A DNA stretch of 64,000 nt from Balneolaceae bacterium (GTDB taxonomy: Bacteria; Bacteroidota; Rhodothermia; Balneolales; Balneolaceae), in the NCBI GenBank assembly GCA_036381435.1, contig DASVCW010000045.1, positions 54,616 to 118,615 of the forward strand. Direction: 5' to 3'. A program made the translations under genes and the position numbers. A model generated the notes under the pieces. The model did not search any database and was not told where the DNA came from. It saw only the letters and a list, made by a program, of their open reading frames with translations. The stretch's first letter is position 1. Every line of letters begins with the position of its first letter. This document shows positions 9,835-47,938 of the stretch, in pieces.

Positions 9835-9835
9835 A

Positions 9836-18500: not shown

Positions 18501-18518
18501 TTACAACAAATGTGCCAA
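18501..18518 (-). promoter_or_regulatory. sigma-54 -24/-12 promoter for the wza operon
   Basis: TTGGCACATTTGTTGTAA on minus strand, about 60 bp before the wza ATG. Confidence 0.7.
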
Positions 18519-18817
18519 TCTAATTTTTATAACTTATTTACCGTTTAAAATTAGTTTAAATAGATCTTATTTCTCCTATATGTCATCCGGTGGCCTTGAA
18601 CTCCGGGGAAGATAGGCTTTCAAATATGATAAAGGCAGGTATCGAAATTAAGGTAAAAGCGGTATCAGTGTTTGAGATCGCTTACATCCGTTCCGGATGA
18701 CTTAAGGAGGAGATTTTTAAGGCGGTAGACAGGTAGTCTTATAAATAAAAGGGATTGTAGCCAGAGGGAGAAGCCATAAGAGAGGTAATTCAAGCAGAAA
18801 AGAGAAGGTGTTTATTG

Positions 18818-18834
18818 TGTGAATATATTTCACA
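18818..18834. promoter_or_regulatory. candidate activator-binding site (TGT-N11-ACA)
   Basis: TGTGAA-TATAT-TTCACA between the divergent sigma-54 promoters; weaker partner site at 18854..18870. Confidence 0.45.
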
Positions 18835-18980
18835 TAAAAGATTTAAAGCTTTGTGTAATTATGTTTCATGATATGCAAAGTTCTATTTGAATTTGAATAT
18901 CTGCTGTCACCGTTTTTTTTTAGCCATGCCATATGCAAAAATTAAGCAATCTGAATCATTTTTAAGAGATTTTAAAAGGT

Positions 18981-18998
18981 TTGGCATAGCTATTGTAC
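18981..18998 (+). promoter_or_regulatory. sigma-54 -24/-12 promoter for the wzc-wzy-wzx operon
   Basis: TTGGCATAGCTATTGTAC, 50 bp before the start at 19048. Confidence 0.7.
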
Positions 18999-19047
18999 TA
19001 CTAATCTTTCAAAAACAGACTATTAATCCTGAATCAATCCTACACAC

Positions 19048-20379
19048 GTGTTTACAATTCAAGAAGTGATCCAGAAAATAAAGGCGGTGATAAAACGTCG
19101 AAAAAAGCTGCTAATACTTATCCCAGTCTTTTTTCTGTTCCTTAGTATTGCCGCACTCCAGGTAATTGAGCCAACCTATGAATCATCAATCACTATTTTA
19201 GTAGAGCAGGATGAAATGCCCATACTTGATATATATAATGTGAATGGCGGTTACAGGCCTCCCAACAGGCTGGAACAGTTCGGCAAGATTATTTATAGCC
19301 GTTCTGCAATGGAAATGCTGATCGACAGTCTTCATTTGGGTGACAGTATTCAAACCATAGCGCAAAAACAAGGTCTTATTGCCGGTTTAAAAAACAGTAT
19401 TACTACCAGCTCCGAAGACGGAAGTTCATTTGAAATAGCATTTTCAAGTGGCGATCCGGTTCGGGCACGAGACGGCGCTGCTTTGCTGGCTCAATTTTAT
19501 ATTAATACACGGTCTCGTTTCGAGAGCAAAGAGAAAAACGAGACGGTTGAATTTCTTGAAAACAAGCTGGCCGAAATTGAAACAATTGTTGAGCAGAGGA
19601 GAGAAGAAATTGTGAGTTCTACAGCTCAGCAAATACAAGAGGTAGCGGTTAATCCGGAGGTGATGCAAAACCGCCTCGAAACAATAAGTACACGTATTCA
19701 GGAGGTTGACCTGTCAATTTATCAAACCGAGACGAAGGTTAATATTCTGGAGGAATTTCTTAATCAGCCGGAAGATAGTTTTTCCATGCTTCCGCTATAC
19801 CGGTTATCACTTGAGGAAATTCCCAATGGGGAACCTTTAACCGACTTATTAAGTAGATATGATACTTTAAGTCAACAGTACACAGAGAATTTTCCGGGCC
19901 TCCAAAATACGAGAGAGCAGATCATTGAGGTTGCCGCCCGTATTAAACCGGCCATTGAATCGAATTTGTCAATTTTAAGAAGGCAAAGGCAAGAGCTTAA
20001 TGCCGAGCGCCAGAGAATCATTCAGAATTTGGAACAATCTTATGTTGCTTCGCAGCGAAGTACCGGCGATCAATCTAGATTCAGCATCTATCAGGAGCTT
20101 TATGATGCTATAAAGAAAAAGCTTGAACAAGCACGTATAAATCGTGAGATGGGCAATAAAACATCAGATCAATTTATTGTCTTAGACCCCCCCGTTATAT
20201 CAGAAACTCCAACTTCACCCAATAAACCATTGGTGATTGGTGCCGGACTCGGGCTGGGGCTGATTATAAGTTGCCTGATGGTAGGCTTTGCTGAAGTAAT
20301 GGATACTACTATTCGTAGCGAGGAAGATCTTAAACTCAACAAACCTATAATTGCATATCTTAAAGATGGAAGAGAATAA
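19048..20379 (+). CDS. polysaccharide co-polymerase (Wzz/GumC/Wzc periplasmic part)
   Basis: N-terminal TM followed by 'PTYESSITILV', long coiled coil, 'VLDPPVISETPTSPNKPLVIGAGLGLGL' second TM. Confidence 0.9.
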   Translation: MFTIQEVIQKIKAVIKRRKKLLILIPVFFLFLSIAALQVIEPTYESSITILVEQDEMPILDIYNVNGGYRPPNRLEQFGKIIYSRSAMEMLIDSLHLGDSIQTIAQKQGLIAGLKNSITTSSEDGSSFEIAFSSGDPVRARDGAALLAQFYINTRSRFESKEKNETVEFLENKLAEIETIVEQRREEIVSSTAQQIQEVAVNPEVMQNRLETISTRIQEVDLSIYQTETKVNILEEFLNQPEDSFSMLPLYRLSLEEIPNGEPLTDLLSRYDTLSQQYTENFPGLQNTREQIIEVAARIKPAIESNLSILRRQRQELNAERQRIIQNLEQSYVASQRSTGDQSRFSIYQELYDAIKKKLEQARINREMGNKTSDQFIVLDPPVISETPTSPNKPLVIGAGLGLGLIISCLMVGFAEVMDTTIRSEEDLKLNKPIIAYLKDGRE

Positions 20380-21109
20380 TTCGAAGATTGTTTTATCGAA
20401 AAAGGAAAAAATGGAAGTTCATGAAGAGTCTCCGATTATAGAGGGTTCTTCGTTCTTTGATACATCACTGGTTCCTATGACTATTTCGGAGGATCAAACC
20501 GATTTTGTTGATCCCGATATAGTGAACCGGAAGTATTATAACAACTTCAATTTTTCTAAACTTACCACCAAATACGGCAATGTAAACTTAGCTTTGGGCA
20601 TTACCAGTGCGAATCCGAAAGAAGGAAAAACGCTGGTAGCAAGCAATATGGCCGTTTCTTTGGCCCGGGCATACCGGCAGAGAACAATACTGGTGGATCT
20701 AAATTTTCAAAATCCGCAGCTACACAAAATATTCGGCACCAGGTTAAGGCCGGGACTAATTGAAGCGATGCAAACACGTGCCTTACAGGTTTCTCCCACT
20801 TTGATTGATGATCTGTATTTGCTCGCCGCGGGTGATAATTCCCGTTATTCACCGGATATAAAAGACACTATTGCATTACGGGAAATTTTCTTCACCCTTA
20901 AAAATGAATTTGATTTCGTGGTTGTAGATATGGGTTCCATTTTTCCTATAGAAGACTTCCCCGTGCACTTTTTTAATGAAGTTGACGGTTTGATAACGGT
21001 GATAGATGCCCAGAATACCAAAGAAGAACATCTAAAAAATATGTACAAGCATATTGATGAAAAGCATTTTATCGGCTACATCTTTAATCGTTTTGAAGGT
21101 ATCGAATGA
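20351..21109 (+). CDS. CpsD/CapB-type bacterial tyrosine (BY) kinase
   Basis: Walker A 'TSANPKEGKT', A' 'ILVDLN', B 'VVVDMG'; no C-terminal Tyr cluster. Confidence 0.85.
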   Translation: MHILKMEENNSKIVLSKKEKMEVHEESPIIEGSSFFDTSLVPMTISEDQTDFVDPDIVNRKYYNNFNFSKLTTKYGNVNLALGITSANPKEGKTLVASNMAVSLARAYRQRTILVDLNFQNPQLHKIFGTRLRPGLIEAMQTRALQVSPTLIDDLYLLAAGDNSRYSPDIKDTIALREIFFTLKNEFDFVVVDMGSIFPIEDFPVHFFNEVDGLITVIDAQNTKEEHLKNMYKHIDEKHFIGYIFNRFEGIE

Positions 21110-21270
21110 TAATTCTGTTCGGCATAATCTTTTTTCACATGCTTGTAATTATCTGCAGTAGAATCAGCGGTAAAAAAGGGGTGCCGTATATTCCTACAAC
21201 GGTAATAACGGTAGTGCTGGTTCTGTTTGTGGTTTTTATGATGTATACGATGGAAAAACCACAACCCTGA
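21106..21270 (+). CDS. small two-TM membrane protein (54 aa), absent from the ORF track
   Basis: ATGA overlap with the kinase stop; MIILFGIIFFHMLVIICSRISGKKGVPYIPTTVITVVLVLFVVFMMYTMEKPQP. Confidence 0.7.
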   Translation: MIILFGIIFFHMLVIICSRISGKKGVPYIPTTVITVVLVLFVVFMMYTMEKPQP

Positions 21271-21305
21271 TCTTTCGGGTAAAATAAAACGGGTAAAAGA
21301 AAAGT

Positions 21306-22871
21306 ATGAGTACGGCTGATTCTAATATTGAAAATAAATTTTACCACAATTTGCTTTTGCGTCCCTTAGGGCTGAATTCGCAAAATTCGTCTGTTTTGTG
21401 GCTTTTGCTTCTTTTAGGCGCAATCACTTTTGGTGGATTGTGGTATTTCGACGGCAGTATTATAGCTGTTGTGGGTATTTTTTATTTTCTCGGCATTGTT
21501 GTTTTAAGTTTCGTTCGTCCCGATTACAGTTTATACATTCTGCTGTTCAGCGTTCTTATTTTTGATCAGTTTGCCATTCCCAACTTTCCCGCCTTTACCA
21601 CCCGCGTAGATTACTTCAAAAACATAAAGGAGATCTCATACATCCCCCAAATTAACGCCGGTGTGGCAAACATCATAGAAGTGCACTTGATGTTTATCAT
21701 TATGGGTACGTTCCTTTTGCTAGGGGTTAAAAAAGACTTTAAGCTGAGGCCGATAACTGTATGGCAACCTTTTCTTTTATTCGCAGCTTGTTTTTTATTC
21801 TCTGTTCTGTATGGAGTCGTAAACGGAGGTGATTTTTTAATTTCACTCTGGGAGACGAGAGCTATATTCTATCTTTTCATCATTTACCTTCTTATACCCC
21901 AGCTTGTGCAAACCAAGAAACAGATCTGGGTTCTGTTTTGGGTTTTTATCACCGCTATTTCTTTTAAGGCATTTCAGGGTATTAAGCGATTTATCAGTCT
22001 GGGATTTACTACCGGCGGACATGATACCTTAACCACGCATCCCGACCCTATTTTTATGATTACGTTGTTCATTTTAATGCTGGGTTTTTTCATTTACAAG
22101 GCCAGGGATAGTCAGTTTTTAATGCTGATCTTATTGTTTTTGCCTCTTGCACTGGGTTTTTATGTAGCGCAGCGCCGGGCTGCTTATGCTTCGGCAATGG
22201 TTTCGTTTGCCACGTTCATTGTTTTACTGCCCGTCGCTTTACGGACGAAATTTCTGAAAATGCTTATCCCGGTTTTTATAGGTCTTGTCTGCTATACAGC
22301 GCTTTTCTGGAATAGTGAAAGTGCTTTGGGCCGGCCCATTGAAATGATCAAATCAGGATTTATAGAGCCTACCAAGCAAGAGAATATCCAAAATTATTAT
22401 TCCAACTTATACCGAGATCAGGAACGCTATAATTTAGCCCGGACAATAGTAGATAAGCCTCTGTTGGGCACTGGCTTTGGAGTGAAGTATGATATGCCCA
22501 TTGAACTGCCGCAAATAAATTTTACTCTTTACGAATATATTCCCCACAACGAGATTATATGGATTATGGTGAAAATGGGAATTATAGGTTTTTTTGCCTT
22601 CTGGTTCTTTTTTAATGCATTCGTAGCAAAAGGGGTGAAGGTGTTAGATAAACTAAGCGACCCATATCTGAAAGCAGTTACTATGGTAGTAATAATTGCG
22701 GTGATCAGCCAAATGGTAGTTTCGTTTTATGACCTGCAGCTTACTTATTATCGGAATATGATTTATCTCGGGGCCCTGATGGGTTTGATGAGTACCCTTA
22801 ACCGGTTAGCAGATGAGGAAAACACGGAAAGTAAAGAGCTGGTGACCACACAGCCGGAGGGTTATTCATGA
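21306..22871 (+). CDS. wzy: O-antigen ligase/polymerase family (Wzy) membrane protein
   Basis: Multi-pass protein; 'QRRAAY', 'GTGFG', 'PHNEIIWIMVKMGIIG' Wzy_C-like motifs; lies next to the flippase. Confidence 0.8.
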   Translation: MSTADSNIENKFYHNLLLRPLGLNSQNSSVLWLLLLLGAITFGGLWYFDGSIIAVVGIFYFLGIVVLSFVRPDYSLYILLFSVLIFDQFAIPNFPAFTTRVDYFKNIKEISYIPQINAGVANIIEVHLMFIIMGTFLLLGVKKDFKLRPITVWQPFLLFAACFLFSVLYGVVNGGDFLISLWETRAIFYLFIIYLLIPQLVQTKKQIWVLFWVFITAISFKAFQGIKRFISLGFTTGGHDTLTTHPDPIFMITLFILMLGFFIYKARDSQFLMLILLFLPLALGFYVAQRRAAYASAMVSFATFIVLLPVALRTKFLKMLIPVFIGLVCYTALFWNSESALGRPIEMIKSGFIEPTKQENIQNYYSNLYRDQERYNLARTIVDKPLLGTGFGVKYDMPIELPQINFTLYEYIPHNEIIWIMVKMGIIGFFAFWFFFNAFVAKGVKVLDKLSDPYLKAVTMVVIIAVISQMVVSFYDLQLTYYRNMIYLGALMGLMSTLNRLADEENTESKELVTTQPEGYS

Positions 22872-24367
22872 AATCAGACGTAAGTGAATCAATAGCGAGA
22901 AATTTTTCTATTATGTTTGTCGCCCAGATGATAAACTGGGTGGCCAGCTTTGTTTTGCTCATGTTTTTGCCGCGCTATCTGGGGAGTGAGGATTACGGGC
23001 GCCTGTATCTGGCTTTATCCATAAAAATGATGCTGGGGCTGTTGATTGATTTCGGCGGCAGTTTTCTGATTCCCAAAGAAGTAGCCCGGTCCGAGAAAAA
23101 CGGTTCAAAGATTTTAAGCAGTTATATCATTCTTCGAATCTTTCTCTGGATTCTTTCCATCGGAGTCATCATGTTGCTTTCTAACCTTTTGGGTTATTCA
23201 GAGCATGTGTATTTGCTCATTCTGATATTGGCAATCGGTAAATTATGGGAGGGAGGATCCGGGGCCATTAAATCTTATTTTCAGGGTATAGAGCGTACCG
23301 AATATCCATCTATTGGACGTGTAGTGGAGCGATTGTTTGTTGCCGGTTTTTCGGTTTTAGCATTGCTTTTAGGCGCAGATTCGATTGAAATTGCTATCAT
23401 CATCACCGTTGGCGCTTTCATTAATTTACTGATAATCATCTGGTTCTCCCGCGATTTTGTCAGTATGAAATACCGGTTTGATTCCAAAGTATTCAAACTG
23501 CTTGGTTCGGGGCTTCCCTACTTTTTGTTTTCCCTGTTTTCAGTGATTTATTACCGGGTTGATGCGATGATGTTGGCGTCGATGACATCTACACAGGTCA
23601 CGGGTTGGTATGGGGGTGCTTATCGTTTCTTTGATGCGATAATGATTCTGCCCATCATTTATAAATCAGCTATTTTCCCCATTTTTTCAAAACTGTGGGA
23701 CGATAAAGATGGAGTTTTAGAACTCACAATTGGCAAAAGTTTAAAGCTGATGCTGATTTTGGCTGTTCCGGTGGCGATTGCTATCTTCCTGTTTTCTGAA
23801 AACATTATCAATTTTTTCATGGGACTTGAGGAGTATGGACCTTCCGTTGCTGTGCTGCAAATTTTTGCCATCAGCATCCCCGTAATCTATGTGGATTTTA
23901 TTCTGGGCAGCGCGATTATGGGAGCGGCAAACCTGCAAAAGTCATGGGCAGTAGTAGGTCTTGTCGCCATCTTTCTAAACATAGGAGCCAATTATTTTAT
24001 GATTCCCTATACCCAGGCGCTATACGCAAACGGTGGTATTGGCGCTGCCGTAGCTACTTTTATCACTGAAATATTCATCATGCTGTCTGCCGTTTTCTTG
24101 CTGCCGAAAAGTTATTTTCAGCGCTTTAAAGCTTCATACGTTTTTAAGCCTCTGAGTGCCGGCATAGCAATGGCCGCTTTTTGCTGGCTGATGTTGAGCT
24201 CCGGCTTGTATTGGATTATATCAGTGATTCTGGGAGTAGGTGTTTATCTTGCTGCTTTAGTGGCAGTTAAGGCATTTAATTCAAAAGAAATTGAAATGGT
24301 AAAAAGTTCAGTTTCATTCAGCCAAATAAAGAAAAGTATGTTTAGCAGTAACAATATCAACGCTTGA
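22868..24367 (+). CDS. wzx: Wzx flippase (MOP superfamily)
   Basis: About 14 TM; 'PRYLGSEDYG', 'YRVDAMML', 'GWYGGAYR', 'GIGAAVAT'. Confidence 0.9.
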   Translation: MKSDVSESIARNFSIMFVAQMINWVASFVLLMFLPRYLGSEDYGRLYLALSIKMMLGLLIDFGGSFLIPKEVARSEKNGSKILSSYIILRIFLWILSIGVIMLLSNLLGYSEHVYLLILILAIGKLWEGGSGAIKSYFQGIERTEYPSIGRVVERLFVAGFSVLALLLGADSIEIAIIITVGAFINLLIIIWFSRDFVSMKYRFDSKVFKLLGSGLPYFLFSLFSVIYYRVDAMMLASMTSTQVTGWYGGAYRFFDAIMILPIIYKSAIFPIFSKLWDDKDGVLELTIGKSLKLMLILAVPVAIAIFLFSENIINFFMGLEEYGPSVAVLQIFAISIPVIYVDFILGSAIMGAANLQKSWAVVGLVAIFLNIGANYFMIPYTQALYANGGIGAAVATFITEIFIMLSAVFLLPKSYFQRFKASYVFKPLSAGIAMAAFCWLMLSSGLYWIISVILGVGVYLAALVAVKAFNSKEIEMVKSSVSFSQIKKSMFSSNNINA

Positions 24368-24398
24368 AGTATTAATACTAAAAACAAAGAGAGAGTTT

Positions 24399-25742
24399 AT
24401 GAAAATTGTAAAGTTTCAAGAAAACGTTATTAATGGCAATGATGAATCTACTTTGTCATGGGTTGAAACTAAAAAGGATGTTCAATTGATGGTTGAAGTA
24501 TTTACCACAGAAGAGAATTTTCAGGCACTGGCACCACACTGGAAAGACCTGGCAAGACGAGCGGATTCAAAGGTTTATATGTCTTATGAATGGGCCTGGA
24601 ACTGGTGGAAACGATTTGGAAGAAATAAAAAGCGCTCCTTATATCTGGTTACCATTTGGGATGGCACTAAATTAGTCGCCCTTGCGCCCTTTTATAAAGG
24701 TTATTCAAAATTAGGACCGCTTGTTATGGAAAGGCGTATGCAAATAATAGGCAGTGGCGGCAGTCCCAATGAACAAATTGGCTATACGGATGATTATGGA
24801 ATCAGTGACTTTCTCGATATTCTGGTTGATCAGGAATACCACGAAGAGGTGGCTGATTTACTGCCCGATATTTTAACGGCCGAATATCTTAATGTTGATG
24901 TTCTTACTTTTCACCAGGCTGATGATGAAAGTTTTGTGATGAAGCATCTCTATCCCAAGTTTCGTCAACTGGAGATTGACATGAGGGTAGAAAAAACCGA
25001 TACGTGTCCCTATATCGATTTAAGGGGTTACGATTCTATGAAAAGCTACATCAAGGACCAGAAATCGAACGCAAGACGCCGCATCAGGCAAACGCTTCGC
25101 GCTACTGGTCCGAATGATGAGTATGAGATTAAAGGAGCAGATACCTGGGCGGAGGTTGAAAAAGCTACTGATAAGTTAATAGAGCTTCATCAAAACCGGT
25201 GGAATGAAATCGGTTTTCCCGGAGTGTTTTATGATGAGCGTTTCATCCAGTTTTTCAAAGACATCATCAAAGATGCTTTCGAGAACGATAAACTCTGGTT
25301 TAAGCAGGCGATAGATGAACGCGGTGTTTGTGCTTCACGAATGATTCTTTTCTACAACGGCCGGTATTATGACTATATCAGCGGATTTGATGATAACCGG
25401 CCGTCTTCAAAGTATCGTCCTGGCATTGGGTTACTCGTTAGTTTGGTTCAGGAGGCCATCGAAAATGGTGTTGAAAAAATAGAGCTGCTGAGGGGAGAAG
25501 AAACCTACAAATACGATTTCACCTCTAACAATTTCAACAATTGGAAATTAACTATGCCGCTGAGGGAGCCAAACGGAAAAACCTTACTGAGCGTGAACAG
25601 ATCTGCTGCATTTTTATACAAGCACATCAACCGGGAGACAGAGTTATTAAAAGTACAGCAATCGCAGGTAGGCTTAGTCCGGATGCTGCCTGAATACCTA
25701 AAGTTTCGATGGAAGAGTGTAAAGATGAAGTTTGATTTATAG
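24399..25742 (+). CDS. GNAT (CelD/BcsL, Acetyltransf_6-like) protein 1
   Basis: 'YEWAWNWW', 'CPYIDL', 'HQNRW...G.PG.F', 'ELLRGEETYK'. Confidence 0.85.
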   Translation: MKIVKFQENVINGNDESTLSWVETKKDVQLMVEVFTTEENFQALAPHWKDLARRADSKVYMSYEWAWNWWKRFGRNKKRSLYLVTIWDGTKLVALAPFYKGYSKLGPLVMERRMQIIGSGGSPNEQIGYTDDYGISDFLDILVDQEYHEEVADLLPDILTAEYLNVDVLTFHQADDESFVMKHLYPKFRQLEIDMRVEKTDTCPYIDLRGYDSMKSYIKDQKSNARRRIRQTLRATGPNDEYEIKGADTWAEVEKATDKLIELHQNRWNEIGFPGVFYDERFIQFFKDIIKDAFENDKLWFKQAIDERGVCASRMILFYNGRYYDYISGFDDNRPSSKYRPGIGLLVSLVQEAIENGVEKIELLRGEETYKYDFTSNNFNNWKLTMPLREPNGKTLLSVNRSAAFLYKHINRETELLKVQQSQVGLVRMLPEYLKFRWKSVKMKFDL

Positions 25743-25820
25743 AACACAGATTTCGATTAGAACGCAGATTAAGCGGATCAAACTGATTAGAGTGAACTCT
25801 AATTTGAAGTTTTCAATAGC

Positions 25821-26123
25821 TTAATGTGAGTTCGATATAAGGTTATTTTTTGTCTTTGCTAGAATCCCGAAGGGATTGAACATGAATAACCCCCGAATGT
25901 GCCAAAGGCATAATTCGGGATTAAAAGATAACATAACAGGCAACCCCGAATGGGGTTGAACCCCAGGTGTGTGTTCCTTATTTAATTCAACCTGCCAGCG
26001 GATTGTTATGGTATATTTTAATCACCGGGTTTCATCCGGTGCTATTCATATTAAAGCCCATTTGGGCTTGTTTTGTACAAAATAAACAGCCAAGTCATAT
26101 CTCCTTATCTCGAACTCAGGTTA
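25821..26123. mobile_element. family B element, second copy
   Basis: ttaatgtgagttcgatataag ... cttatctcgaactcaggtta ends; cargo colinear with 9373..9657. Confidence 0.75.
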
Positions 26124-26140
26124 GCTTAATGAAAAAACCT

Positions 26141-26271
26141 ATCAGCGGAGCACTCGTCCCCCTTCAAAGGGGGCACGGGGGATGACCCACTCTCAAACAA
26201 AACCCATGAACTGAATTATTGCAAATAATTCAGCAAAAAGTCCCCCTTAGCGAAGGGGGATTAGGGGGATT
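26141..26271. repeat. family A element, rearranged (left module inverted)
   Basis: atcagcggag...cccccttcaaaggggg..., ctgaattattgcaaataattcag, cccccttagcgaaggggg. Confidence 0.7.
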
Positions 26272-26458
26272 GAAAAGCATAGAATTTCTTTCGTCATGCA
26301 CTTTATTCTATTGGCAATAGGTAGGACAACTTACCGGCACCCGGTAAAGTGGGAAAGTCTGATCAATGGGGATGAAGAGAGTAAAGCAGAAAAGCGAATT
26401 ATCACAGATATAAGAATCTGTGTCAAATCTGCTAAATCCGCTTCATCCGCGTTCCATA

Positions 26459-38455: not shown

Positions 38456-38495
38456 ATCAAGAATGATTTTTTTAACTTATAAATTCTAAAAAACT

Positions 38496-40067: not shown

Positions 40068-40084
40068 TGTAAAAATATTGCACA
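40068..40084. promoter_or_regulatory. candidate activator-binding site (TGT-N11-ACA)
   Basis: TGTAAA-AATAT-TGCACA about 85-100 bp upstream of the 40167 promoter. Confidence 0.4.
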
Positions 40085-40166
40085 TAGCTGTTTATTTCTT
40101 CATATAAGATTTACCCATTATTCAAAATTTATTCAATCATCACCCTTGTCTTAACCTGAACTAGTC

Positions 40167-40184
40167 TTGGCATAGTTGTTGTGT
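40167..40184 (+). promoter_or_regulatory. sigma-54 promoter for the GT4-ATP-grasp x3-GNAT operon
   Basis: TTGGCATAGTTGTTGTGT, 46 bp before the ATG. Confidence 0.7.
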
Positions 40185-40229
40185 TCATTATAATAAAGAA
40201 GCCTTTAAAGAGAGACATCAAACATACAC

Positions 40230-41426
40230 ATGAAAATACTTCATCTCTTTCCATACCTCCCGTCGCCACCAACCTTTGGGGGAGCTTTACGGGTGTATCA
40301 TATTTTAAAGCACCTCAGTCAAAATCATGAAGTGACAGTGGGAGGATTCTGTGATTTTGGAGATATGGAATTATTCAAAGAAGATTTCCCGGGCGTGGAT
40401 GGTCACCTGTTTGTGCAACGGAGACGGGTAAATTACCGCCGGTTAATGCAGTTTTGTTCCCTTTTTACCCCTCACAGTTATTGGTATAACTGGGGGCAAT
40501 CACCAAAGCTGGAATCAAAGGTAAGAGCTCGTATCGCCGAAGAAGATTTCGATATCATTTTGGGTGAATTTGCATCTATGGGACATTTTGACCTTGAAAC
40601 GGATGCCATTCGAATTATGGATGCTCACAATATTGAATACGATAACTTTCGGAGAATGAGCACTCTCGAATGGTCCGGAATCAGAAAATGGTTTTACGAG
40701 CGGGAATCTGAGAAATGTTATTCCGAAGAGGTAAAGGCTTTTAAACGACATGATGCCATTTTTGCTACTTCAGAACGGGATAAAGCCATTATAGAAAAAA
40801 ATGCCCCTGGTATTCCCAAATTTGTGATTCCTAACGGGGTTGACACAAACTTTTTTTCAGCCAGTGAAACAGAGATTGAGCCGTTCTCGATGGTATTTAC
40901 CGGCGCCTTAAGTTATGTGCCGAACTATGACGGTATGATTTATTTTTTAGATGAAATTTTTCCCATCATTCAAAAAGTAGTTCCACAAGCAAAAGTTTAT
41001 ATCGTAGGCAGCAAGCCACCGGCCACATTGAAAAAATATGAGTCAAATTCGGTAACCGTTACCGGTTTTGTGGATGATGTTCGTCCCTATGTAGATCAGT
41101 CAAGCGTTTTTGTAGTTCCGCTAAGAATGGGCAGCGGCACACGCCTTAAAGTAGTTGAAGCGCTGTCGATGAAGAAACCGGTCGTTTCAACAAGTATAGG
41201 CTGCGAAGGCATAGATGTAAACGACAACGAGCATTTAATGGTGCGCGATGAACCCGCCGCTTTTGCTGAAGCGGTAATAAACCTTTTTAAAGATTCAAAA
41301 ACACGAAATAAACTGGTTGAAAATGGTTATCAACTGGTTAAACAAAAGTACGATTGGCAAGTAATAGGGCGATCGATAGACAACGCCTTTCAAGAGTTAA
41401 CATCAAACAAAAATATAATGGTATAA
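40230..41426 (+). CDS. GT4 glycosyltransferase
   Basis: 'PYLPSPPTFGGALRVY', 'VIPNGVD', 'FTGALSYVPN', 'GSGTRLKVVEALSMKKPVVST'. Confidence 0.92.
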   Translation: MKILHLFPYLPSPPTFGGALRVYHILKHLSQNHEVTVGGFCDFGDMELFKEDFPGVDGHLFVQRRRVNYRRLMQFCSLFTPHSYWYNWGQSPKLESKVRARIAEEDFDIILGEFASMGHFDLETDAIRIMDAHNIEYDNFRRMSTLEWSGIRKWFYERESEKCYSEEVKAFKRHDAIFATSERDKAIIEKNAPGIPKFVIPNGVDTNFFSASETEIEPFSMVFTGALSYVPNYDGMIYFLDEIFPIIQKVVPQAKVYIVGSKPPATLKKYESNSVTVTGFVDDVRPYVDQSSVFVVPLRMGSGTRLKVVEALSMKKPVVSTSIGCEGIDVNDNEHLMVRDEPAAFAEAVINLFKDSKTRNKLVENGYQLVKQKYDWQVIGRSIDNAFQELTSNKNIMV

Positions 41427-41430
41427 AATT

Positions 41431-42717
41431 ATGGCTATTTATTCGGGGGAATTTATAGATTTAGAGAATCCGGTTCTCGTAATCGGAGAAATGGGATTAG
41501 TGAGGAGCTTGGGAGAGATGGACCTGCCGCTTTTTTTGGGCACTGAAATCGAAAAAAATATTGCGGCGCATTCACGCTATGTAAAACAGCGCTTTTTCTT
41601 CTCGCCCTACGACAGTGAAGAATTTATTGATGAGCTGTGTGAACTGGGATATTATTTTAAGAAAAAACCGGTGATTTTGAGTGATGATGACCGGGCTATT
41701 TTAAATATTTCTGAAAACCGTAATAAATTGAAAGCTTATTATCTTTTCTTATATCCTGAGAGAAAAACGGTTAATAAGATACTGAATAAGCAGTACTTCA
41801 GTGAATTAGCCGAAAGGCACGAGCTTCCGGTTCCCGTATCTTATCAAACCACTTCTTCGCGCGATTTTAGGGAGGTGGCGTCTAAAATTAACTATCCATG
41901 TATTATCAAACCCACCCAGCGCCATTTTTGGTGGGGTGATGATTTTATTGAACAAATGGGACATTATCAAAAAGCCGTTAAATGTTCGGATCTTTATCAA
42001 TTTAAAGATACTTGTCAAAAAATATCGGAGGTTAATCCAAGTGTAGTAATTCAGGAATATGTTGAAGGAGATGACAAACAGCACTATAGCGCCAACTTAT
42101 TTGTGGATGAAAGAGGGAAGCTGCAAGGGTACTATATCGCCCGCAAAAAGCGGATTTATCCCATAAAAGCAGGTACCGGAAGCTATGTGGAAACGGTGGT
42201 TAATCCTGCAGTGCTTGAAATTTCAATGAAGATAGTAGAAAAGCTGGGGCTCAGGGGGCTTGTAAACATACAGTTTAAACAAGACAGTCGAACGGCAGAA
42301 TATAAGCTGTTAGAAATTCACGCCCGTAATAGCCTCTGGAGCCTTCTTGGAGCCAAGGCAGGAGCTAACTTGGCCTATCTTTATTATAACTATTTGGTAT
42401 ATGGGCTGCATCACGATAACGTCATTAAGGCCAGGCCAAACATTAAATATTTTAATCTGTCAAAAGATGTTCGGGCCTTACTGGCCTACCGGAATGAAGG
42501 GAAACTGACGGTGGCAGAATGGTGGCAGTCGCTACGGGGGGAGCGGATATTCGCAGCTTTTTCATGGAAAGATCCGCTGCCGGCACTGTTCAAAATTTGG
42601 GACATCGTTTTGAATAGTCTAAAACGAGCTGTTAAGAAAAAGCTGCCGCAACCCAAAAGGCTAAAGCATGAAAGCTTTTTAACACGGAACGCTAGTTTTT
42701 TAACCAGAATATTTTAG
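41431..42717 (+). CDS. ATP-grasp carboxylate-amine ligase 1 (D-aspartate-ligase-like)
   Basis: 'SDDD', 'LNKQYF', 'YPCIIKP', 'VVIQEYVEG', 'NIQFKQD', 'LLEIHAR'. Confidence 0.85.
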   Translation: MAIYSGEFIDLENPVLVIGEMGLVRSLGEMDLPLFLGTEIEKNIAAHSRYVKQRFFFSPYDSEEFIDELCELGYYFKKKPVILSDDDRAILNISENRNKLKAYYLFLYPERKTVNKILNKQYFSELAERHELPVPVSYQTTSSRDFREVASKINYPCIIKPTQRHFWWGDDFIEQMGHYQKAVKCSDLYQFKDTCQKISEVNPSVVIQEYVEGDDKQHYSANLFVDERGKLQGYYIARKKRIYPIKAGTGSYVETVVNPAVLEISMKIVEKLGLRGLVNIQFKQDSRTAEYKLLEIHARNSLWSLLGAKAGANLAYLYYNYLVYGLHHDNVIKARPNIKYFNLSKDVRALLAYRNEGKLTVAEWWQSLRGERIFAAFSWKDPLPALFKIWDIVLNSLKRAVKKKLPQPKRLKHESFLTRNASFLTRIF

Positions 42718-42721
42718 TGTT

Positions 42722-43936
42722 ATGGAACAAAATCATCATCCCGCATTAATATTGGGTGAAATCGGGTTAGTGCAAAGCTTGGGTGAGGCCGGCGTTCCTG
42801 TCTATATCGGAACCGAAATCAGGGATAACCCCTCACTTTTTTCCCGTTACAATCAAAAAACCGTTTGTTTTTCTGATTATACCTCTCCCGAATTTATTGA
42901 TGAGCTTTGCAAATTTGGTGAAACCTTAGAACAAAAAGCGGTTATTTTTAGTGATGATGATCATGCTATTTTAAACATCAGTCAGCATCAAGAGCGCATT
43001 AAAAACTATTTTTTATTCACTTTTCCACAAGCCGAAAAAGTTAAAAAATTGCTCGACAAGCAATTGTTTTGTGAAATTATCGAGCAATACAATTTACCGG
43101 CTCCAAAGTCTATAACACTTTCATCCGTTCAGGAAATGGCAGTAAAAGATGTTTCAGAGCTTAACTTCCCTTGCATCATCAAGCCTTCCTTCAAACAAGC
43201 CTGGTGGGGTACTGATTTTGATAAAAAAGTGGGTGATTATCAGAAAGCGATAAAGTGTGAGTCTTATGATGATGCGGTGCAAAAATATGAACAAATTGCA
43301 GAAGTGAATCCACACGTGGTTATTCAGGAATTTATTGAAGGCAAAGAAGATCAGCTTTACAGTGTAAACATGTATGTGGGTAATGAAGGAGATCTTAAAG
43401 GTTATTTCATCGCTCAAAAATTGCGCACCTATCCTGTTCAGGCCGGTGAAGGTTGTTATATCGTCACGGTCCGTGATGATGAAATGATAGCTATGGCCAT
43501 GACTATCGCTGATAAAATTGGTTTAAAGGGGCTTTTAAACATCCAGTTTAAGCGGGACCGGCGCAGTGGAAAGCCGGTTTTATTAGAAATACATGCCCGA
43601 AACAGCGTTTGGAGCTATTTGGGTACAGAGGCAGGCGTTAATCTTGCTGCGCTTTATTATGAGGATTTAACGGGGGGGAAACGATTTAAAATTCCTGATT
43701 ATAAAGCGGGAGTTACATTCATTTTTTTACAAAAAGACATCAAAGCATTCATCCAAAATTTTAGAATGAAGCAAATTTCAATCGGTAAGTGGATCGCCTC
43801 GTATTTCAGGAGATTTATAGTGGCGGGTTACCGGTGGAATGATCCATTGCCACTACTTATGACGTTGTATTTTTTCATCAGAAGGAGGCTATATGTACAC
43901 AATGTAAAGCTCTTCCCTAAAAGCACAATGCCATAA
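42722..43936 (+). CDS. ATP-grasp carboxylate-amine ligase 2
   Basis: 'FPCIIKP', 'VVIQEFIEG', 'NIQFKRD', 'LLEIHAR'. Confidence 0.85.
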   Translation: MEQNHHPALILGEIGLVQSLGEAGVPVYIGTEIRDNPSLFSRYNQKTVCFSDYTSPEFIDELCKFGETLEQKAVIFSDDDHAILNISQHQERIKNYFLFTFPQAEKVKKLLDKQLFCEIIEQYNLPAPKSITLSSVQEMAVKDVSELNFPCIIKPSFKQAWWGTDFDKKVGDYQKAIKCESYDDAVQKYEQIAEVNPHVVIQEFIEGKEDQLYSVNMYVGNEGDLKGYFIAQKLRTYPVQAGEGCYIVTVRDDEMIAMAMTIADKIGLKGLLNIQFKRDRRSGKPVLLEIHARNSVWSYLGTEAGVNLAALYYEDLTGGKRFKIPDYKAGVTFIFLQKDIKAFIQNFRMKQISIGKWIASYFRRFIVAGYRWNDPLPLLMTLYFFIRRRLYVHNVKLFPKSTMP

Positions 43937-43991
43937 GTCAACATTAAAGAGAAATTTAAAAGATAATCACAATTACAAATCAGCATATATA

Positions 43992-45158
43992 ATGATTAAT
44001 CAGAAGTCTCCTGTGTTAACCTTTAGCGCATTAGGTTTAATACATTGTCTGGGAACAGCAGGAATTCCTGTTTATACTGCATCAGAAGAAAAACCAAACG
44101 TAGCATCTTATTCAAGATACTCTAAAAAACACACTATTTTTTCACCATTCGCTTCAGAAGCATTCATAGATGAGTTATGTGATTTGGGAAATTCATTCGA
44201 TGGAAAGATTGCTTTAATGTGGACTCATGATGGAGCCGGGCTCAACATTTCTAATAATAGAGAACGGCTTAAAGAAAATTTTCTGTTTCGTCTACCCCAT
44301 CCTGAAATGGTAAAAAAAATATTAAACAAATTATTGTTTTGCCGACTTTGCGAAGAATATGATTTACCGGCACCTGAATCTGTTGAGGTATCTCAATTAG
44401 ATGAACTAAAGAAAGCAAAAAAACGATTAAAGGCACCATTCATTATTAAACCGGCTCATACTTATTATTGGTATCATAAAGATTTTTCAAAGATCATAGG
44501 TAACTATCAAAAAGCATTTATTTTCCAAAATTTTGATGAAGTTGAAGCCTTTTATAAGAAAATATCAAAAATTAATCCCAATGTGGTTTTACAGGAATAT
44601 GTAGTGGGTGATGATCATCAGTTGTTTGATGTTAATTTACACATCAATCAAAAAGGAGAAATAGATAGTTATGCAATAGCCCAAAAAATGCGCGTTTATC
44701 CCCCAAAAGCAGGGTGGGGCTGTTATGTAAAAACAATATTTGATGAGGAGTTACTTGAAATATGTAAAAGAATTATAGCAAAGCTGGAACTTAAAGGAAT
44801 GATGAATATTCAGTTCAAGAGGGATGAGCGAACCAATCAGCCGAAGCTAATCGAAATGCACCCCAGAACCAGTATTTTCGATTTTCTTGGAACCGCGGCA
44901 GGTCAAAATATCCCTTTAAAGTATTACTCTAGTTTAACAGGCATACAAATTGGTGAATCGAAGCAGTATCAAACTGACATTAAATACATCAATATTGCCA
45001 GAGATTTGCGGCTGTTAATTCGGCATCGAAAAGATTATGGGCTTTCACTGATGGAGTGGATGAAAAGTTACAGCGGTGTTTCTGTTTACGACGGAATGAT
45101 GTTAAAAGATCCGCGGGTGCTTTACCATGAGCTTCGATCTGCTTTTATAAATAGTTAA
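43992..45158 (+). CDS. ATP-grasp carboxylate-amine ligase 3
   Basis: 'APFIIKP', 'VVLQEYVVG', 'NIQFKRD', 'LIEMHPR'. Confidence 0.85.
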   Translation: MINQKSPVLTFSALGLIHCLGTAGIPVYTASEEKPNVASYSRYSKKHTIFSPFASEAFIDELCDLGNSFDGKIALMWTHDGAGLNISNNRERLKENFLFRLPHPEMVKKILNKLLFCRLCEEYDLPAPESVEVSQLDELKKAKKRLKAPFIIKPAHTYYWYHKDFSKIIGNYQKAFIFQNFDEVEAFYKKISKINPNVVLQEYVVGDDHQLFDVNLHINQKGEIDSYAIAQKMRVYPPKAGWGCYVKTIFDEELLEICKRIIAKLELKGMMNIQFKRDERTNQPKLIEMHPRTSIFDFLGTAAGQNIPLKYYSSLTGIQIGESKQYQTDIKYINIARDLRLLIRHRKDYGLSLMEWMKSYSGVSVYDGMMLKDPRVLYHELRSAFINS

Positions 45159-45271
45159 CTTACTGTTAATACTTTAGTTATATTATTTTTTAAAGCGGGT
45201 ATATACGTTCAAAAATACAACATCAAGATGAGTTTTAGTTCAGGAATTCAGAAAAATAGGAAAGTCTGACA

Positions 45272-46627
45272 ATGAGTATTGAGGAACATCAAATAAAGAA
45301 AACAGAATTAATTGATTTAAAAGAGAATGGAGGGAGTGAAAATTCTTCAGATGGAACATTAAATGTTTTAGTGATTTCAGGCACTGAAATGTTTGACGGT
45401 ATTTCAGAGGAATGGCGGAACGTAGCTGAAATTTCAAGTACTTACATTTTTCAAACTTATGAATGGAACCGGATCTGGTGGAAACATTTCGGGGACGGCC
45501 AGCAGTTGAATATTCTGCTTTTTTATCAGGATGATTTACTGCTTGGCATCGCGCCATTATTTCTTGACAAGGTTACCTTTATGGGACTCAAAATGTACTC
45601 TTGTCTTCGTTTTATTGGTTCTACCGTAAGTCAGCCTGAAGGAGAGGATTTAAAGGGACTTTTACCTTATTCCGATTATCTCGACCTGATCATTCGTCCC
45701 GGTTACGAGAGGCAAGTTAACCGGAAATTTATGGAATATCTGGCAAATAATGAGCTGGATTTTAATGAAGTAGTTTTAGATGAAATACCTGAAAACAGCT
45801 CATTGAGGAACTATTTAATGCCGGATTTAGAAGAGCAGGACAAGGATTACCTGGTGCAGCAAAGTTCCGCTTGTCCCGTCATAGAATTAGGTCGTTCCTG
45901 GGATGAGCACTTGGCTGACATGAGCAAAAGCTCGCGATATAAAACACGGCGTTTTATAAAACAGGCAGAAAAACCGGGTTATAAGATTTTTGAAATAAAA
46001 GAAGCCCCCGATAAAGCCGGAATAGAAAAAGCTTATGAAAAACTGGTGAAATTACATCAAAAACGATGGAAGGATTTGGGCTATCCCGGAATCTTCGATG
46101 AGAAGCGAATGTACAATTTTCTGAAAGAGATAACACTGGAGTTTTTTGATCACGGATGGGCACAATGTAAATTAGCTCATTCGATCGAAGAAAATGGCAA
46201 GTGCATAGCCGTTGATCTGCTCTTCAAATATAAACGGCGCGAGTACCTGGTGCAGCGCGCCTTAGATTCCGATTCACCATCTGCCGAACACGGCCCGGGG
46301 AATGTATTGCTTTATGTGATGTTAAGAGATGCGGCAGAAAAGGGTATTGAGGAGTTTGACCTTTTGAGGGGCACTGAATCTTATAAGTTTCGATCTGCTA
46401 ATAGCTTATTAAAGAATGATACCGTCACCTTTAAAAACCCCGGCAAAAAGCTTGCTTTGAACTTTGGGTTCACCAAAAAATTTATCAAGTCCAGAAGAAG
46501 GTTCAGGATTGAACATGAACAGTTTAAAATTTTTCTAAACGGAGAGAAAAACCTGTTCAATAATATTCATGATTACGGTAATTTTTTATATAACCGTCTG
46601 TCACTGAAATTCAATTCGAAAGGATGA
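45272..46627 (+). CDS. GNAT (CelD/BcsL-like) protein 3
   Basis: 'FQTYEWNRIWW', 'SACPVI', 'HQKRW...GYPGIF', 'FDLLRGTESYK'. Confidence 0.85.
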   Translation: MSIEEHQIKKTELIDLKENGGSENSSDGTLNVLVISGTEMFDGISEEWRNVAEISSTYIFQTYEWNRIWWKHFGDGQQLNILLFYQDDLLLGIAPLFLDKVTFMGLKMYSCLRFIGSTVSQPEGEDLKGLLPYSDYLDLIIRPGYERQVNRKFMEYLANNELDFNEVVLDEIPENSSLRNYLMPDLEEQDKDYLVQQSSACPVIELGRSWDEHLADMSKSSRYKTRRFIKQAEKPGYKIFEIKEAPDKAGIEKAYEKLVKLHQKRWKDLGYPGIFDEKRMYNFLKEITLEFFDHGWAQCKLAHSIEENGKCIAVDLLFKYKRREYLVQRALDSDSPSAEHGPGNVLLYVMLRDAAEKGIEEFDLLRGTESYKFRSANSLLKNDTVTFKNPGKKLALNFGFTKKFIKSRRRFRIEHEQFKIFLNGEKNLFNNIHDYGNFLYNRLSLKFNSKG

Positions 46628-46672: not shown

Positions 46673-46752
46673 AATTTAGCTCTCCGAAGGAGAGCCTGCT
46701 AACTGCTAAGCTAAAGAAATATCTCGCGCTGGTGATTTATCACGGTCAATGT

Positions 46753-46945
46753 CTAATTCAACGGAAGCGAGAGGGAACGTTGGAAAAACTCAATCAAACT
46801 TATTTTTGGTGAGTCTTCAACAGAAAGAACAACCACACTGTCTTTACCATGCTTAGTAACCGTTTGCGGACCTTCTTCCGTTGCTTTTCGAACTACTTCG
46901 TTAAATTTATTTTTGGCCTTGAAGCTGTCATTTTGCAAGTTTCAT
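46753..46945 (-). pseudogene. Phd/YefM antitoxin remnant
   Basis: ATG AAA CTT GCA AAA TGA CAG CTT CAA G GCC AAA AAT AAA TTT...: MKLAK*QLQ, frameshift, then AKNKFNEVVRKATEEGPQTVTKHGKDSVVVLSVED; no toxin gene beside it. Confidence 0.75.
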
Positions 46946-47064
46946 AATCACCTGTTTTTTCTGTCCGGTCTATCTATAAATTACATACTGTTTAACAAGA
47001 GTTGGAAGATTGTAGCGAAGAATGGAAAGAAAATTTGCGAAAACTAACTGACAAGCTGACTTTT

Positions 47065-47106
47065 TCCAGCATCCAGCATCCAGCATCCAGCATCCAGCAT
47101 CCAGCA
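47065..47106. repeat. perfect heptamer tandem repeat (TCCAGCA)x6
   Basis: Six exact copies directly after the WecB/TagA stop codon. Confidence 0.95.
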
Positions 47107-47107
47107 T

Positions 47108-47881
47108 CTAATACTTATTACTGACTTTAAGAATCAGCACATTTAAGGCAAAGAGCGGCAGTTTGAGCATCCGGCGCCAGCGCTGGGGTTGGTTACACAA
47201 GCGGTAAAACCATTCTAATCCACTTTTTTGCAGCCATTTTGGTGCCCTTTTAACATTACCTGCAATAAAATCAAAGGTGCCGCCAATACCGATAATCAAC
47301 TTGCAGTTTGGCAGCTTTGGCAGGTTTTCATTAATCCATTTTTCCTGAGCCGGTGCTCCGAGGGCCACGAAAACGACAGAAGCATTTTGTAGTTGTTCCC
47401 GTTTGTCGTCAGGCAACTCCTCAAGCGGGATATCCGGTTTTTCAGGTGAATATGTGCCCGAAATGTTAAAGCTTTCAATTCTACTTTGGAGAATAGTGGC
47501 AGCTTTTTCTGCTACTGTTGGCATAGCACCATAAAGAAATGCTGATTCATGATGCTTGCCGCAAAGAGCACATATATTTTCTAAAGAATCTGATCCCGTT
47601 ATTCGATCTACGTGTTTATTGTACAAAAATTCTATAGCCCAGCTAATGCCAACTCCGTCTGCGGTATTTATACTTGATGATGTAAGAATATGTTTGAATT
47701 CATTATCAATAATAGACTGAATGACAATTTCGGGATTTACGGTAATGACAAACACAGGGGGAGTGACGGGGTCATTATCCTTCAATCGGGATTCTATAAG
47801 TTCATAAAATTCATCTCTTGAATATGGAGAAATATCTACTCCAAGAACCGAATAAGGTTCTTTTTTGTCTAATACCAGCAT
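47108..47881 (-). CDS. WecB/TagA/CpsF (GT26) glycosyltransferase
   Basis: 'VITVNPEI', 'ADGVGI', 'RITGSD', 'ALGAPAQEKW', 'GIGGTFD', 'RAPKW.QK.GLEWFYRL..QP.RWRR'. Confidence 0.93.
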   Translation of the reverse strand: MLVLDKKEPYSVLGVDISPYSRDEFYELIESRLKDNDPVTPPVFVITVNPEIVIQSIIDNEFKHILTSSSINTADGVGISWAIEFLYNKHVDRITGSDSLENICALCGKHHESAFLYGAMPTVAEKAATILQSRIESFNISGTYSPEKPDIPLEELPDDKREQLQNASVVFVALGAPAQEKWINENLPKLPNCKLIIGIGGTFDFIAGNVKRAPKWLQKSGLEWFYRLCNQPQRWRRMLKLPLFALNVLILKVSNKY

Positions 47882-47920
47882 GAATAGTGCTTAATTCGTT
47901 GTTTTTACTTTCCATTAAAA

Positions 47921-47938
47921 AAGCAATAAACATGCCAT
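47921..47938 (-). promoter_or_regulatory. sigma-54 promoter for the WecB/TagA gene
   Basis: ATGGCATGTTTATTGCTT on minus strand, 40 bp before the ATG. Confidence 0.75.

Follow-up and report, generated by a model that had tools for sequence, protein, structure and literature searches.

Six -24/-12 motifs in a 64,000-nucleotide stretch of DNA from a Balneolaceae bacterium (contig DASVCW010000045.1 of assembly GCA_036381435.1, positions 54,616 to 118,615 of the forward strand; the whole stretch is referred to here as the window, and positions are counted from its first letter) are likely to be functional sigma-54 (RpoN) promoters, and each precedes a different operon of a six-operon cluster for the synthesis and export of exopolysaccharide. 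The sequence comes from a soil metagenome, on a contig of 125,380 bp, and the window has a G+C content of ~40%. Its nearest relatives, as judged by the Wza-like exporter protein, are a Balneolaceae metagenome-assembled genome (MAG; 80% identity) and Gracilimonas tropica DSM 19535 (49%), and homologues of other proteins of the region carry names from Balneolaceae, Fodinibius, Aliifodinibius and Gracilimonas. The cluster, as recognized by Pfam and NCBIfam scans, extends for ~35 kb (12.7-47.9 kb) and comprises six transcription units, every one of which starts directly after one of the six sites. Together the six promoters precede ~26 genes, with Wza, Wzz, Wzy, flippase, glycosyltransferase, FemAB-like, ATP-grasp and carbamoyltransferase types represented among their products.

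The six motifs and their conservation

The six strings quoted in a preliminary description of this DNA are present exactly, and all share the same -24/-12 spacing, a register that recurs in more than 30 instances among relatives. Two divergent pairs are real (18518/18981 and 31416/32045). The first is made up of site 1 (18503-18518, minus strand; TTGGCACATTTGTTGT), which scores 20.6 bits on the matrix described below with a predicted transcription start site (TSS) at ~18491, and site 2 (18981-18996, plus strand; TTGGCATAGCTATTGT), with 20.3 bits and a predicted TSS at ~19008. The second consists of site 3 (31401-31416, minus strand; TTGGCATACTAATTGC; 17.3 bits, predicted TSS ~31389) and site 4 (32045-32060, plus strand; TTGGCACGTTTGTTGC; 14.7 bits, predicted TSS ~32072, leader of ~208 nt). 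Site 5 (40167-40182, plus strand; TTGGCATAGTTGTTGT; 16.7 bits, predicted TSS ~40194) and site 6 (47923-47938, minus strand; ATGGCATGTTTATTGC; 19.3 bits, predicted TSS ~47911) stand singly. The -12 box is of the TTGT type at three sites, as had been stated, namely sites 1, 2 and 5, and carries C at sites 3, 4 and 6. Each site is directed at an adjacent gene that is the first of an operon, in keeping with the orientation claimed for them, and the earlier statement that five lie within 40-60 bp of a start codon is borne out, since the start codon follows the final base of the -12 box after 61, 52, 44, 220, 48 and 42 nt at sites 1 to 6.

The motif TGGCAY-N5-TTGY matches the window seven times, compared with 0.65 +/- 0.78 matches in 100 dinucleotide shuffles, none of which reached seven, and six of the seven matches are intergenic in a window of which 17.5% is intergenic (binomial P = 1.7e-4). 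The looser motif TGGC-N7-TTGC gives five matches where 2.55 are expected, which is not significant, and the signal resides in the full TGGCAY...TTGY motif. The preliminary description had proposed a position weight matrix scan of the background rate; with a matrix built from relatives only, the six sites are the top six hits in the window, at 14.7-20.6 bits, and Markov-simulated windows yield ~0.5 hits above 14 bits per window. Two further candidates were set aside. The seventh match (5883-5897, minus strand) is probably a chance occurrence, as it lies inside a glycoside-hydrolase open reading frame (ORF; 5069-7195), reads CATGGCA and scores below 8 bits on the family matrix, and a hit of 14.6 bits at 26310-26331 (minus strand) lacks the GG (TTGTCC) and has no gene downstream on that strand. 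Relaxed scans of the gaps within the glycoside-hydrolase region and of the DNA preceding the activator gene revealed no more promoters. A search of the whole window against Rfam gave no hit, and the leaders are accordingly free of any known riboswitch or small RNA.

Comparison loci were gathered with the Wza-like protein as query, which yielded the Balneolaceae MAG (L001), Gracilimonas tropica (L002), seven metagenome contigs (L003-L009) and fifteen distant loci (L010-L024), and with homologues of GT1c, the product of the first gene after site 5, which yielded three further loci (L028-L030). All close relatives whose sequence reaches upstream of the Wza gene have the divergent promoter pair between Wza and Wzz, and the promoters persist in intergenic DNA that has otherwise diverged; the fifteen distant loci, ~150 kb in all, contain no motif match. 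Promoters orthologous to site 1 occur in L001, L002, L003 and L005-L009, as well as before the pseudo-activator gene (see below) in L025-L027, and those orthologous to site 2 in L001, L002 and L005-L009, where they are mainly TTGC. The deacetylase gene behind site 4 is preceded by orthologous promoters in L002, L005, L009 and L029. At site 5 both the promoter and its upstream palindrome are kept in L028 and L030 despite unrelated genomic contexts, the GT1c promoters there reading CTTGGCATAGTTGTTGTAAC and GTTGGCACAGTTGTTGTATC, and at site 6 orthologous promoters precede WecG in L028 (GTGGCATATTTATTGC) and L029 (GTGGCACGCTCCTTGA). Phylogenetic footprinting, with Gracilimonas and Fodinibius included, supports five of the six sites as candidate promoters.

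The relatives also contain motifs at other locations. TTGT-type sites are found at L025 3670-3684, L026 3865-3879 and L027 12234-12248 (all minus strand), ahead of an operon for a nucleotide-sugar epimerase/dehydrogenase in Fodinibius and Aliifodinibius and, in F. roseus, upstream of the gene for a response regulator of the LuxR type; the regulon may thus also cover the synthesis of precursors and its own regulatory genes. A strong motif in Fodinibius saliphilus, TTGGCACAGTTATTGC (L025 7790-7931, minus strand), is located downstream of the GT2 gene and points toward the 3' end of dnaB, with a hairpin resembling an intrinsic terminator ~110 nt further on; it is possible that it drives a sigma-54-dependent small RNA or a 14-codon ORF.

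Some transcript evidence bears on the predicted start sites. Contigs of a soil metatranscriptome (X8) come from a strain 90-95% identical to the window, and the genes of the cluster are represented among them. Two of these contigs leave the first genes of their units and end at ~18476 and ~31378, which is 15 and 11 nt inside the predicted TSS of sites 1 and 3 respectively, a weak agreement with the predictions; none of the X8 contigs spans either divergent promoter region. X8 was the one metatranscriptome found, and a search for RNA runs of cultured relatives, Gracilimonas tropica among them, returned none.

The motifs could be something other than sigma-54 promoters, whether chance occurrences, the sites of another protein or promoters of the sigma-70 type in which TTGGCA serves as a -35 box, and in favor of this stands site 5, where TTGGCA-16-TATAAT (40167-40194, plus strand) matches the sigma-70 consensus in 11 of 12 positions. 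That match is probably a coincidence, as the TATAAT is missing from the orthologous promoters of L028 and L030, which retain the -24/-12 motif, and sigma-70-like matches are not enriched over shuffles (54 vs 50, and 51 vs 48). The motif is moreover asymmetric and always co-oriented with the downstream gene, its GG-N10-G spacing is exact in more than 30 instances, and an activator with the GAFTGA loop is encoded nearby, a class of protein with no known role without sigma-54. We consider a non-sigma-54 origin of some or all of the motifs very improbable, even with the failure to find rpoN (below) counted in its favor.

Candidate activator sites and the activator

A 17-bp palindrome, TGTRAA-N5-TTYACA, is found upstream of the promoters, usually by ~90-165 bp; it is clear at four of them (sites 1 and 2 together, 3 and 5) and present as half-sites at two. 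The spacers between Wza and Wzz are poorly alignable among relatives except for one conserved block, in which TTACACA is followed by ~17 bp of spacer and TGTGAAATATATTCACA. The degenerate form TGTRAA-N5-TNCNCA, of which 0.32 occurrences are expected in the window, is found at 18818-18834 and 40068-40084, both upstream of promoters. In 196 kb of non-redundant sequence from the family, the zones 50-200 bp upstream of promoters contain 12 copies of TGT-N11-ACA where 0.71 are expected (17-fold, P = 4e-12), and five of the six occurrences of the stricter TGTRA-N7-TYACA fall inside these zones. Tandem copies are frequent and stand 31-34 bp apart, as in the window (18818/18852), L006 (3545/3576) and L002 (2842/2874), a spacing that corresponds to three helical turns.

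Sites 1 and 2 share the tandem candidates TGTGAATATATTTCACA (18818-18834) and TGTGTAATTATGTTTCA (18852-18868), 34 bp apart, and this tandem is conserved in L001, L002, L003, L006-L009 and L027. A strict palindrome, TGTAACTTTTTTTCACA (31488-31504), lies 73 bp upstream of the -24 box of site 3. The candidate for site 4 is weaker, a degenerate copy (CGAGAATAAATTTTACA, 31945-31961) accompanied by TTACACA at 31925-31931, which resembles TGAGAATAAACGTTACA of L002. Site 5 is preceded by TGTAAAAATATTGCACA (40068-40084) and a degenerate copy, TATAAGATTTACCCA (40103-40117), conserved in L028 and L030, and site 6 by the half-sites TGTAAAAACTATTCTTG (48001-48017) and TGTAAAAGTTGGACGTG (48033-48049), 32 bp apart, which are the weakest of the set; a block at site 6, CCACGTCCAA..TTACAC, is conserved in L028. 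The layout of the palindromes is the classic enhancer arrangement of sigma-54 activators. In Salmonella the sites of such activators usually lie ~70-150 bp upstream of the promoter (PMC3844500).

The candidate for the protein that acts there is encoded at 3592-4626 (plus strand), a canonical sigma-54 activator of 344 aa (PF00158, 228 bits) with the Walker A motif GENGTGKE, the GAFTGA loop and the Walker B motif LFLDEVGE. The PF00158 match covers residues 26-192 and is followed by a lid domain (198-275) and a Fis-type helix-turn-helix (HTH_8, 297-338); there is no N-terminal sensor or receiver domain, and no named equivalog model was passed. An orthologue, 64% identical, is encoded at the edge of the cluster in L009, and in Fodinibius and Aliifodinibius the activator gene stands beside that of the pseudo-activator. 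Directly upstream of the activator gene in the window are genes for a histidine kinase (119-820) and two LuxR/GerE-type response regulators (833-1471 and 2692-3336; the set spans 119-3336, plus strand), which possibly constitute its input module. The two response-regulator genes are separated by 1.2 kb (1472-2691) in which no ORF exceeds 63 codons and nothing matches Rfam.

These same LuxR/GerE-type regulators could be what binds the palindrome, with the activator working from solution or from another site. They adjoin the activator gene, one is encoded between the two AAA+ genes in L027, and the best NCBIfam match of both is to the UvrY/SirA/GacA family, whose binding box, TGTAAG-N6-CTTACA, resembles the palindrome. 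The scores of that match are under the cut-off, however, and the spacing differs, the N5 palindrome being 17 bp long and the box 18 bp. The tandem copies three helical turns apart and 90-165 bp upstream of a sigma-54 promoter have the layout of an enhancer, and in L025 and L026 palindrome and promoter are both present with no LuxR-type regulator within 10 kb. On balance we regard binding by these regulators as doubtful and favor the 344-aa activator.

The preliminary description took the motifs to be sigma-54 promoters that define a regulon, and the statistics, the orientation, the conservation, the upstream candidate activator sites and the nearby activator gene all support it in this. Several observations weigh on the other side. 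Tblastn searches with a C-terminal segment of Escherichia coli RpoN did not find rpoN in the window or the comparison loci; to our knowledge GAFTGA activators act solely on the sigma-54 holoenzyme, and we presume RpoN to be present because the window encodes such an activator. Three of the six sites lack the canonical C at -12. Site 3 falls outside the orthologue comparison, and its support consists of the matrix score, the palindrome 73 bp upstream and the RNA contig end; site 4 has the lowest score of the six, its palindrome is degenerate and its leader contains a repeat element; and site 6 reads ATGGCA and has palindromes only as half-sites. The P value for the palindrome is optimistic, being uncorrected for the A+T-richness of intergenic DNA, the protein that binds it could be one of the LuxR-type regulators, and in the window site 1 is ~300 bp away from it. 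The X8 contigs are unstranded assemblies from a related strain and possibly include DNA.

Two of these anomalies are associated with inserted repeats. The ~300-bp separation of site 1 from the palindrome arises because a 126-bp element bounded by inverted repeats (18579-18704), which is not in L001, sits between them. Likewise, the 220-nt distance of site 4 from its gene is explained by a 143-bp dispersed-repeat element (32090-32232) inserted in the leader and bounded by imperfect 28-nt inverted repeats; the deacetylase promoters of relatives stand 58-80 nt from the start codon. This second element has an 81%-similar copy at 56774-56865, its core is embedded in several unrelated metatranscriptome contigs, and contigs of the source metagenome assembly (run X1) break at it. 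Elements similar to it are found at 39882-40033 and at 18579-18704. Short dispersed repeats resembling miniature inverted-repeat transposable elements occupy further intergenic stretches (25743-26458, 4674-4792 and 9409-9590), and in the source metagenome depth is raised and contigs break across the 25.8-26.4 kb region.

The -12 base and the pseudo-activator

Among relatives the base at -12 tends to be kept promoter by promoter. Ahead of the operon that contains the Wza gene, the pseudo-activator gene or both, it is T in 11 loci, A in one (L009) and C in none, with an N5 spacer that varies; the GT1c promoter has T in three of three loci, and the deacetylase promoter C in four of five. The Wzz promoter usually carries C, with T in three lineages. 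Over all 34 non-redundant promoters of the family, which belong to one regulon, the counts are 19 T, 13 C and 2 A.

T at this position is also known from enterobacteria. In two published promoter lists, pspA of Salmonella and E. coli reads TTGGCACGCAAATTGTA and E. coli pspG reads TTGGCATGATTCTTGTA, both with T at -12 (PMC3844500, PMC4591121); the two E. coli promoters are marked as experimentally confirmed (PMC4591121, Table 1), and the Salmonella list includes the variants TGT (hydN) and TTGA (STM0649.S) (PMC3844500). Since confirmed promoters carry it, T at -12 is not new and need not imply a special RpoN, and the three sites that have it may still belong among sigma-54 promoters. The preliminary description had offered two readings of TTGT, promoter-strength classes or a lineage-specific RpoN preference; the conservation of the -12 base at individual promoters favors the former, and the psp promoters remove any need for a special RpoN.

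In the first of these readings, which we hold tentatively and at slightly less than even likelihood, TTGT or TTGA would mark a distinct promoter class, kept so as to alter the stability of the closed complex or the threshold for the activator and giving rise to a hierarchy within the regulon. The base is conserved promoter by promoter, as T at the Wza/pseudo-activator and GT1c promoters and as C at the deacetylase promoter. PspF, like the activator encoded here, is without a sensor domain. In the E. coli table, so far as it was covered, TTGT is found at pspA and pspG only, and both are PspF-dependent. The toggling of the Wzz promoter between C and T among lineages suggests on the other hand that T may be nearly neutral, and the loci are phylogenetically non-independent. 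That toggling also speaks for the second reading, in which the RpoN of Balneolaceae, its preference relaxed or shifted, would accept Y in place of C at -12 and TTGT would be a lineage consensus without regulatory meaning, as do the base counts over the family promoters, with far more T than in the enterobacterial lists, so far as those were covered. The sampled promoters all belong to one regulon, however, and the strict retention of T or C at particular promoters argues against neutrality; we judge a relaxed preference rather unlikely. The retention of T at -12 at particular promoters provides a natural setting in which to study the in vivo function of the -12 C.

The third gene of the operon behind site 1 (15892-16728, minus strand) encodes a protein of 278 aa with an activator-type AAA+ domain, referred to here as the pseudo-activator, which is homologous to the AAA+ domains of NifA, ZraR, NtrC1, VpsR and PspF. 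When it is aligned with eight orthologues, the GAFTGA motif is seen to be replaced in a loop that is four residues shorter, Walker B is an invariant D-Q, and both the arginine-finger segment and an HTH are missing; Walker A (GEIGSGKK) and the segments PPLRERKEDIP and WPGNIRQLKN are retained. Judged by these residues the protein is predicted to be catalytically dead, and to be neither a conventional activator nor a DNA-binding regulator. We accordingly reject its assignment as a real activator, as it has no GAFTGA, HTH or catalytic residues. The family (270-285 aa) is widespread in Balneolaceae (for example L002 11680-12501 and L025-L027 10001-10831), and its gene is always linked either to that of a canonical short activator or to the Wza operon. 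In Gracilimonas-like loci it lies inside the Wza operon, and in Fodinibius and Aliifodinibius it stands behind its own TTGGCACATTTGTTGT promoter, to which L027 adds a perfect TGTGAAATTTATTCACA palindrome.

The recurrence of this gene linkage suggests that the two AAA+ proteins work together, and one may speculate that the pseudo-activator is a non-catalytic subunit that modulates the activator hexamer. A more specific version, which we regard as unlikely, has it as a trans-acting 'poison' or tuning subunit that would co-assemble with the sensor-less activator, in a feedback loop that sets the level of exopolysaccharide expression; the loop is proposed because the pseudo-activator is always transcribed from a promoter with a -12 box that does not carry C. 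We know of no description of the control of sigma-54 activators by a dead paralogue. Were it true, the circuit would be similar in logic to that of PspF and PspA, with a dead paralogue as its building block, and would represent a new way of controlling sigma-54 activators.

The mechanism that we infer, from RpoN dependence and start sites through the palindrome-binding protein to the role of the pseudo-activator, would run as follows. RpoN holoenzyme would bind TTGGCAY-N5-TTGY as a closed complex, with TTGT accepted as a variant of the -12 box and maintained at certain promoters. The 344-aa activator would bind the tandem palindromes ~90-165 bp upstream and 31-34 bp apart, divergent pairs sharing or adjoining one enhancer region, and would open the promoters by means of ATP and its GAFTGA loop such that all six operons are switched on together. 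As the activator has no sensor domain, it would be controlled in trans, either at the level of its own expression, through the neighboring kinase and LuxR-type regulators, or by the pseudo-activator from the TTGT-driven Wza operon. This amounts to a complete sequence-defined map of promoters, enhancers, activator and operons for an exopolysaccharide cluster in the Balneolaceae, a poorly studied and mostly uncultured family from soil and saline habitats, and as the same elements are found in the cultured Gracilimonas tropica, Fodinibius roseus, Fodinibius saliphilus and Aliifodinibius salipaludis, it is directly testable.

Cluster layout and comparison with known systems

The six units are divided between the two strands. 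Unit 1 runs from 18442 down to ~12691 (minus strand) and encodes the Wza-like exporter, a PorV-like outer-membrane protein, the pseudo-activator, a WecA-like priming transferase and a GH18 protein, and unit 2 (19048-25742, plus strand) encodes a Wzz-like chain-length determinant, a tyrosine autokinase, a Wzy polymerase, a flippase and FemAB-like protein 1. Unit 3 (31357 down to 26459, minus strand) contains genes for an SxtJ-like protein, a carbamoyltransferase and two GDSL-like proteins; unit 4 (32280-39830, plus strand) those for the polysaccharide deacetylase, GT1a, GT1b, GH9, GT2 and FemAB-like protein 2; unit 5 (40230-46627, plus strand) those for GT1c, three ATP-grasp proteins and FemAB-like protein 3; and unit 6 (47881-47108, minus strand) that for a WecG/TagA-type transferase. 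Terminator-like hairpins are found at the ends of convergent units (25951-26069, 26241-26260, 39914-39934 and 46866-46881). The public gene call for GT1c (40230-41426, plus strand), P0121 with 364 aa, begins 34 codons after the ATG chosen here; as homologues of 398-399 aa span the full length, the longer version is probably the right one.

Runs of paralogues are seen in and around the cluster. Three GH5-like hydrolase domains (5069-11080, minus strand) are 50-57% identical to one gene in relatives, three ATP-grasp genes lie in tandem (41431-45158, plus strand), and there are three FemAB-like genes (24399-25742, 38496-39830 and 45272-46627, plus strand); the cluster looks expanded relative to that of Gracilimonas. 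Genes for dnaB, uracil-DNA-glycosylase and a radical-SAM (MiaB-like) protein border the cluster in the window (47108-53354, compared with L028 16771-21200), and the same genes border those for GT2, pseudo-activator and activator in Fodinibius (L025/L026 3922-9240). As these flanks are common to both, the chromosomal site is conserved and the polysaccharide gene content is variable. Further to the right (54971-63540, plus strand) is a set of genes resembling those for type IV pili or type II secretion, with a PilB-like ATPase, a cyclic-nucleotide-binding protein, a PilT-like ATPase, a PilO-like protein and a secretin with a SPOR domain, and with no sigma-54 motif ahead of it.

The promoters taken alone are a clean but ordinary case of a known association, and it is the promoter-specific T at -12 and the conserved, apparently dead activator paralogue that raise the system above the routine. 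Sigma-54 has been linked across phyla to the synthesis and transport of exopolysaccharide precursors, as part of a 'bacterial exterior' theme (Francke et al. 2011, PMC3162934), and in Flavobacterium psychrophilum, from a related phylum, typical -24/-12 promoters (motif SM4) have been mapped by their TSS ahead of genes for the envelope and cell surface (Guerin et al. 2021, PMC9723704). The present cluster, its palindrome, the promoter-specific TTGT and the pseudo-activator are not described in either study, and among the papers searched none combines a word beginning 'Balneola' with 'sigma-54'.

A closer parallel is provided by the PEP-CTERM/exosortase loci of Proteobacteria, with their cis-regulatory sites for PrsR/PrsK and sigma-54 (Haft et al. 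2006, PMC1569441). There too an activator motif followed by a -24/-12 motif is repeated before many exopolysaccharide-associated units, at a mean distance of ~71 nt to the start codon (PMC1569441), and a dedicated Fis-type sigma-54 activator is encoded nearby. The likeness extends to the proteins, in that the best NCBIfam matches of the exporter, the chain-length determinant, the tyrosine kinase, GT1c and the FemAB-like proteins are to XrtA/PEP-CTERM-associated families. The scores are nevertheless below the cut-offs (90/180, 109/279, 83/231, 245/317 and 312/503 for TIGR03027, TIGR03007, TIGR03018, TIGR03087 and TIGR02915), no exosortase (EpsH/XrtA) was hit among the cluster ORFs of at least 100 aa, and the activator, which has no receiver domain and is not a response regulator, is not PrsR. 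On these grounds we reject membership in the PEP-CTERM/XrtA system. The promoters here differ further in preceding biosynthetic operons rather than genes for PEP-CTERM proteins, and the phylum is Balneolota, in the Bacteroidota-related group.

The PspF regulon resembles this one in other respects. The -12 box TTGTA is common to pspA (TTGGCACGCAAATTGTA) and site 1 (TTGGCACATTTGTTGTA), the activator consists of an AAA+ domain and HTH only and must be regulated in trans, and a candidate trans-regulator is encoded in an operon driven by the activator. Membership in the PspF system fails, as the PspF model TIGR02974 has a cut-off of 443.55 and gives the activator 280 bits, and no PspA-like protein was found among the ORFs scanned. 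The targets also differ, making polysaccharide instead of serving a membrane-stress response, and the candidate trans-regulator is a seemingly dead AAA+ paralogue and not PspA/IM30.

Activator relatives that have lost parts of the canonical machinery are known elsewhere. VpsR, which controls polysaccharide genes in Vibrio, and TyrR are without a working GAFTGA, and FleT is without a DNA-binding domain. The pseudo-activator resembles the former two in the one feature and FleT in the other, and differs from all three in losing the GAFTGA, the catalytic Walker B glutamate, the arginine fingers and the HTH all together.

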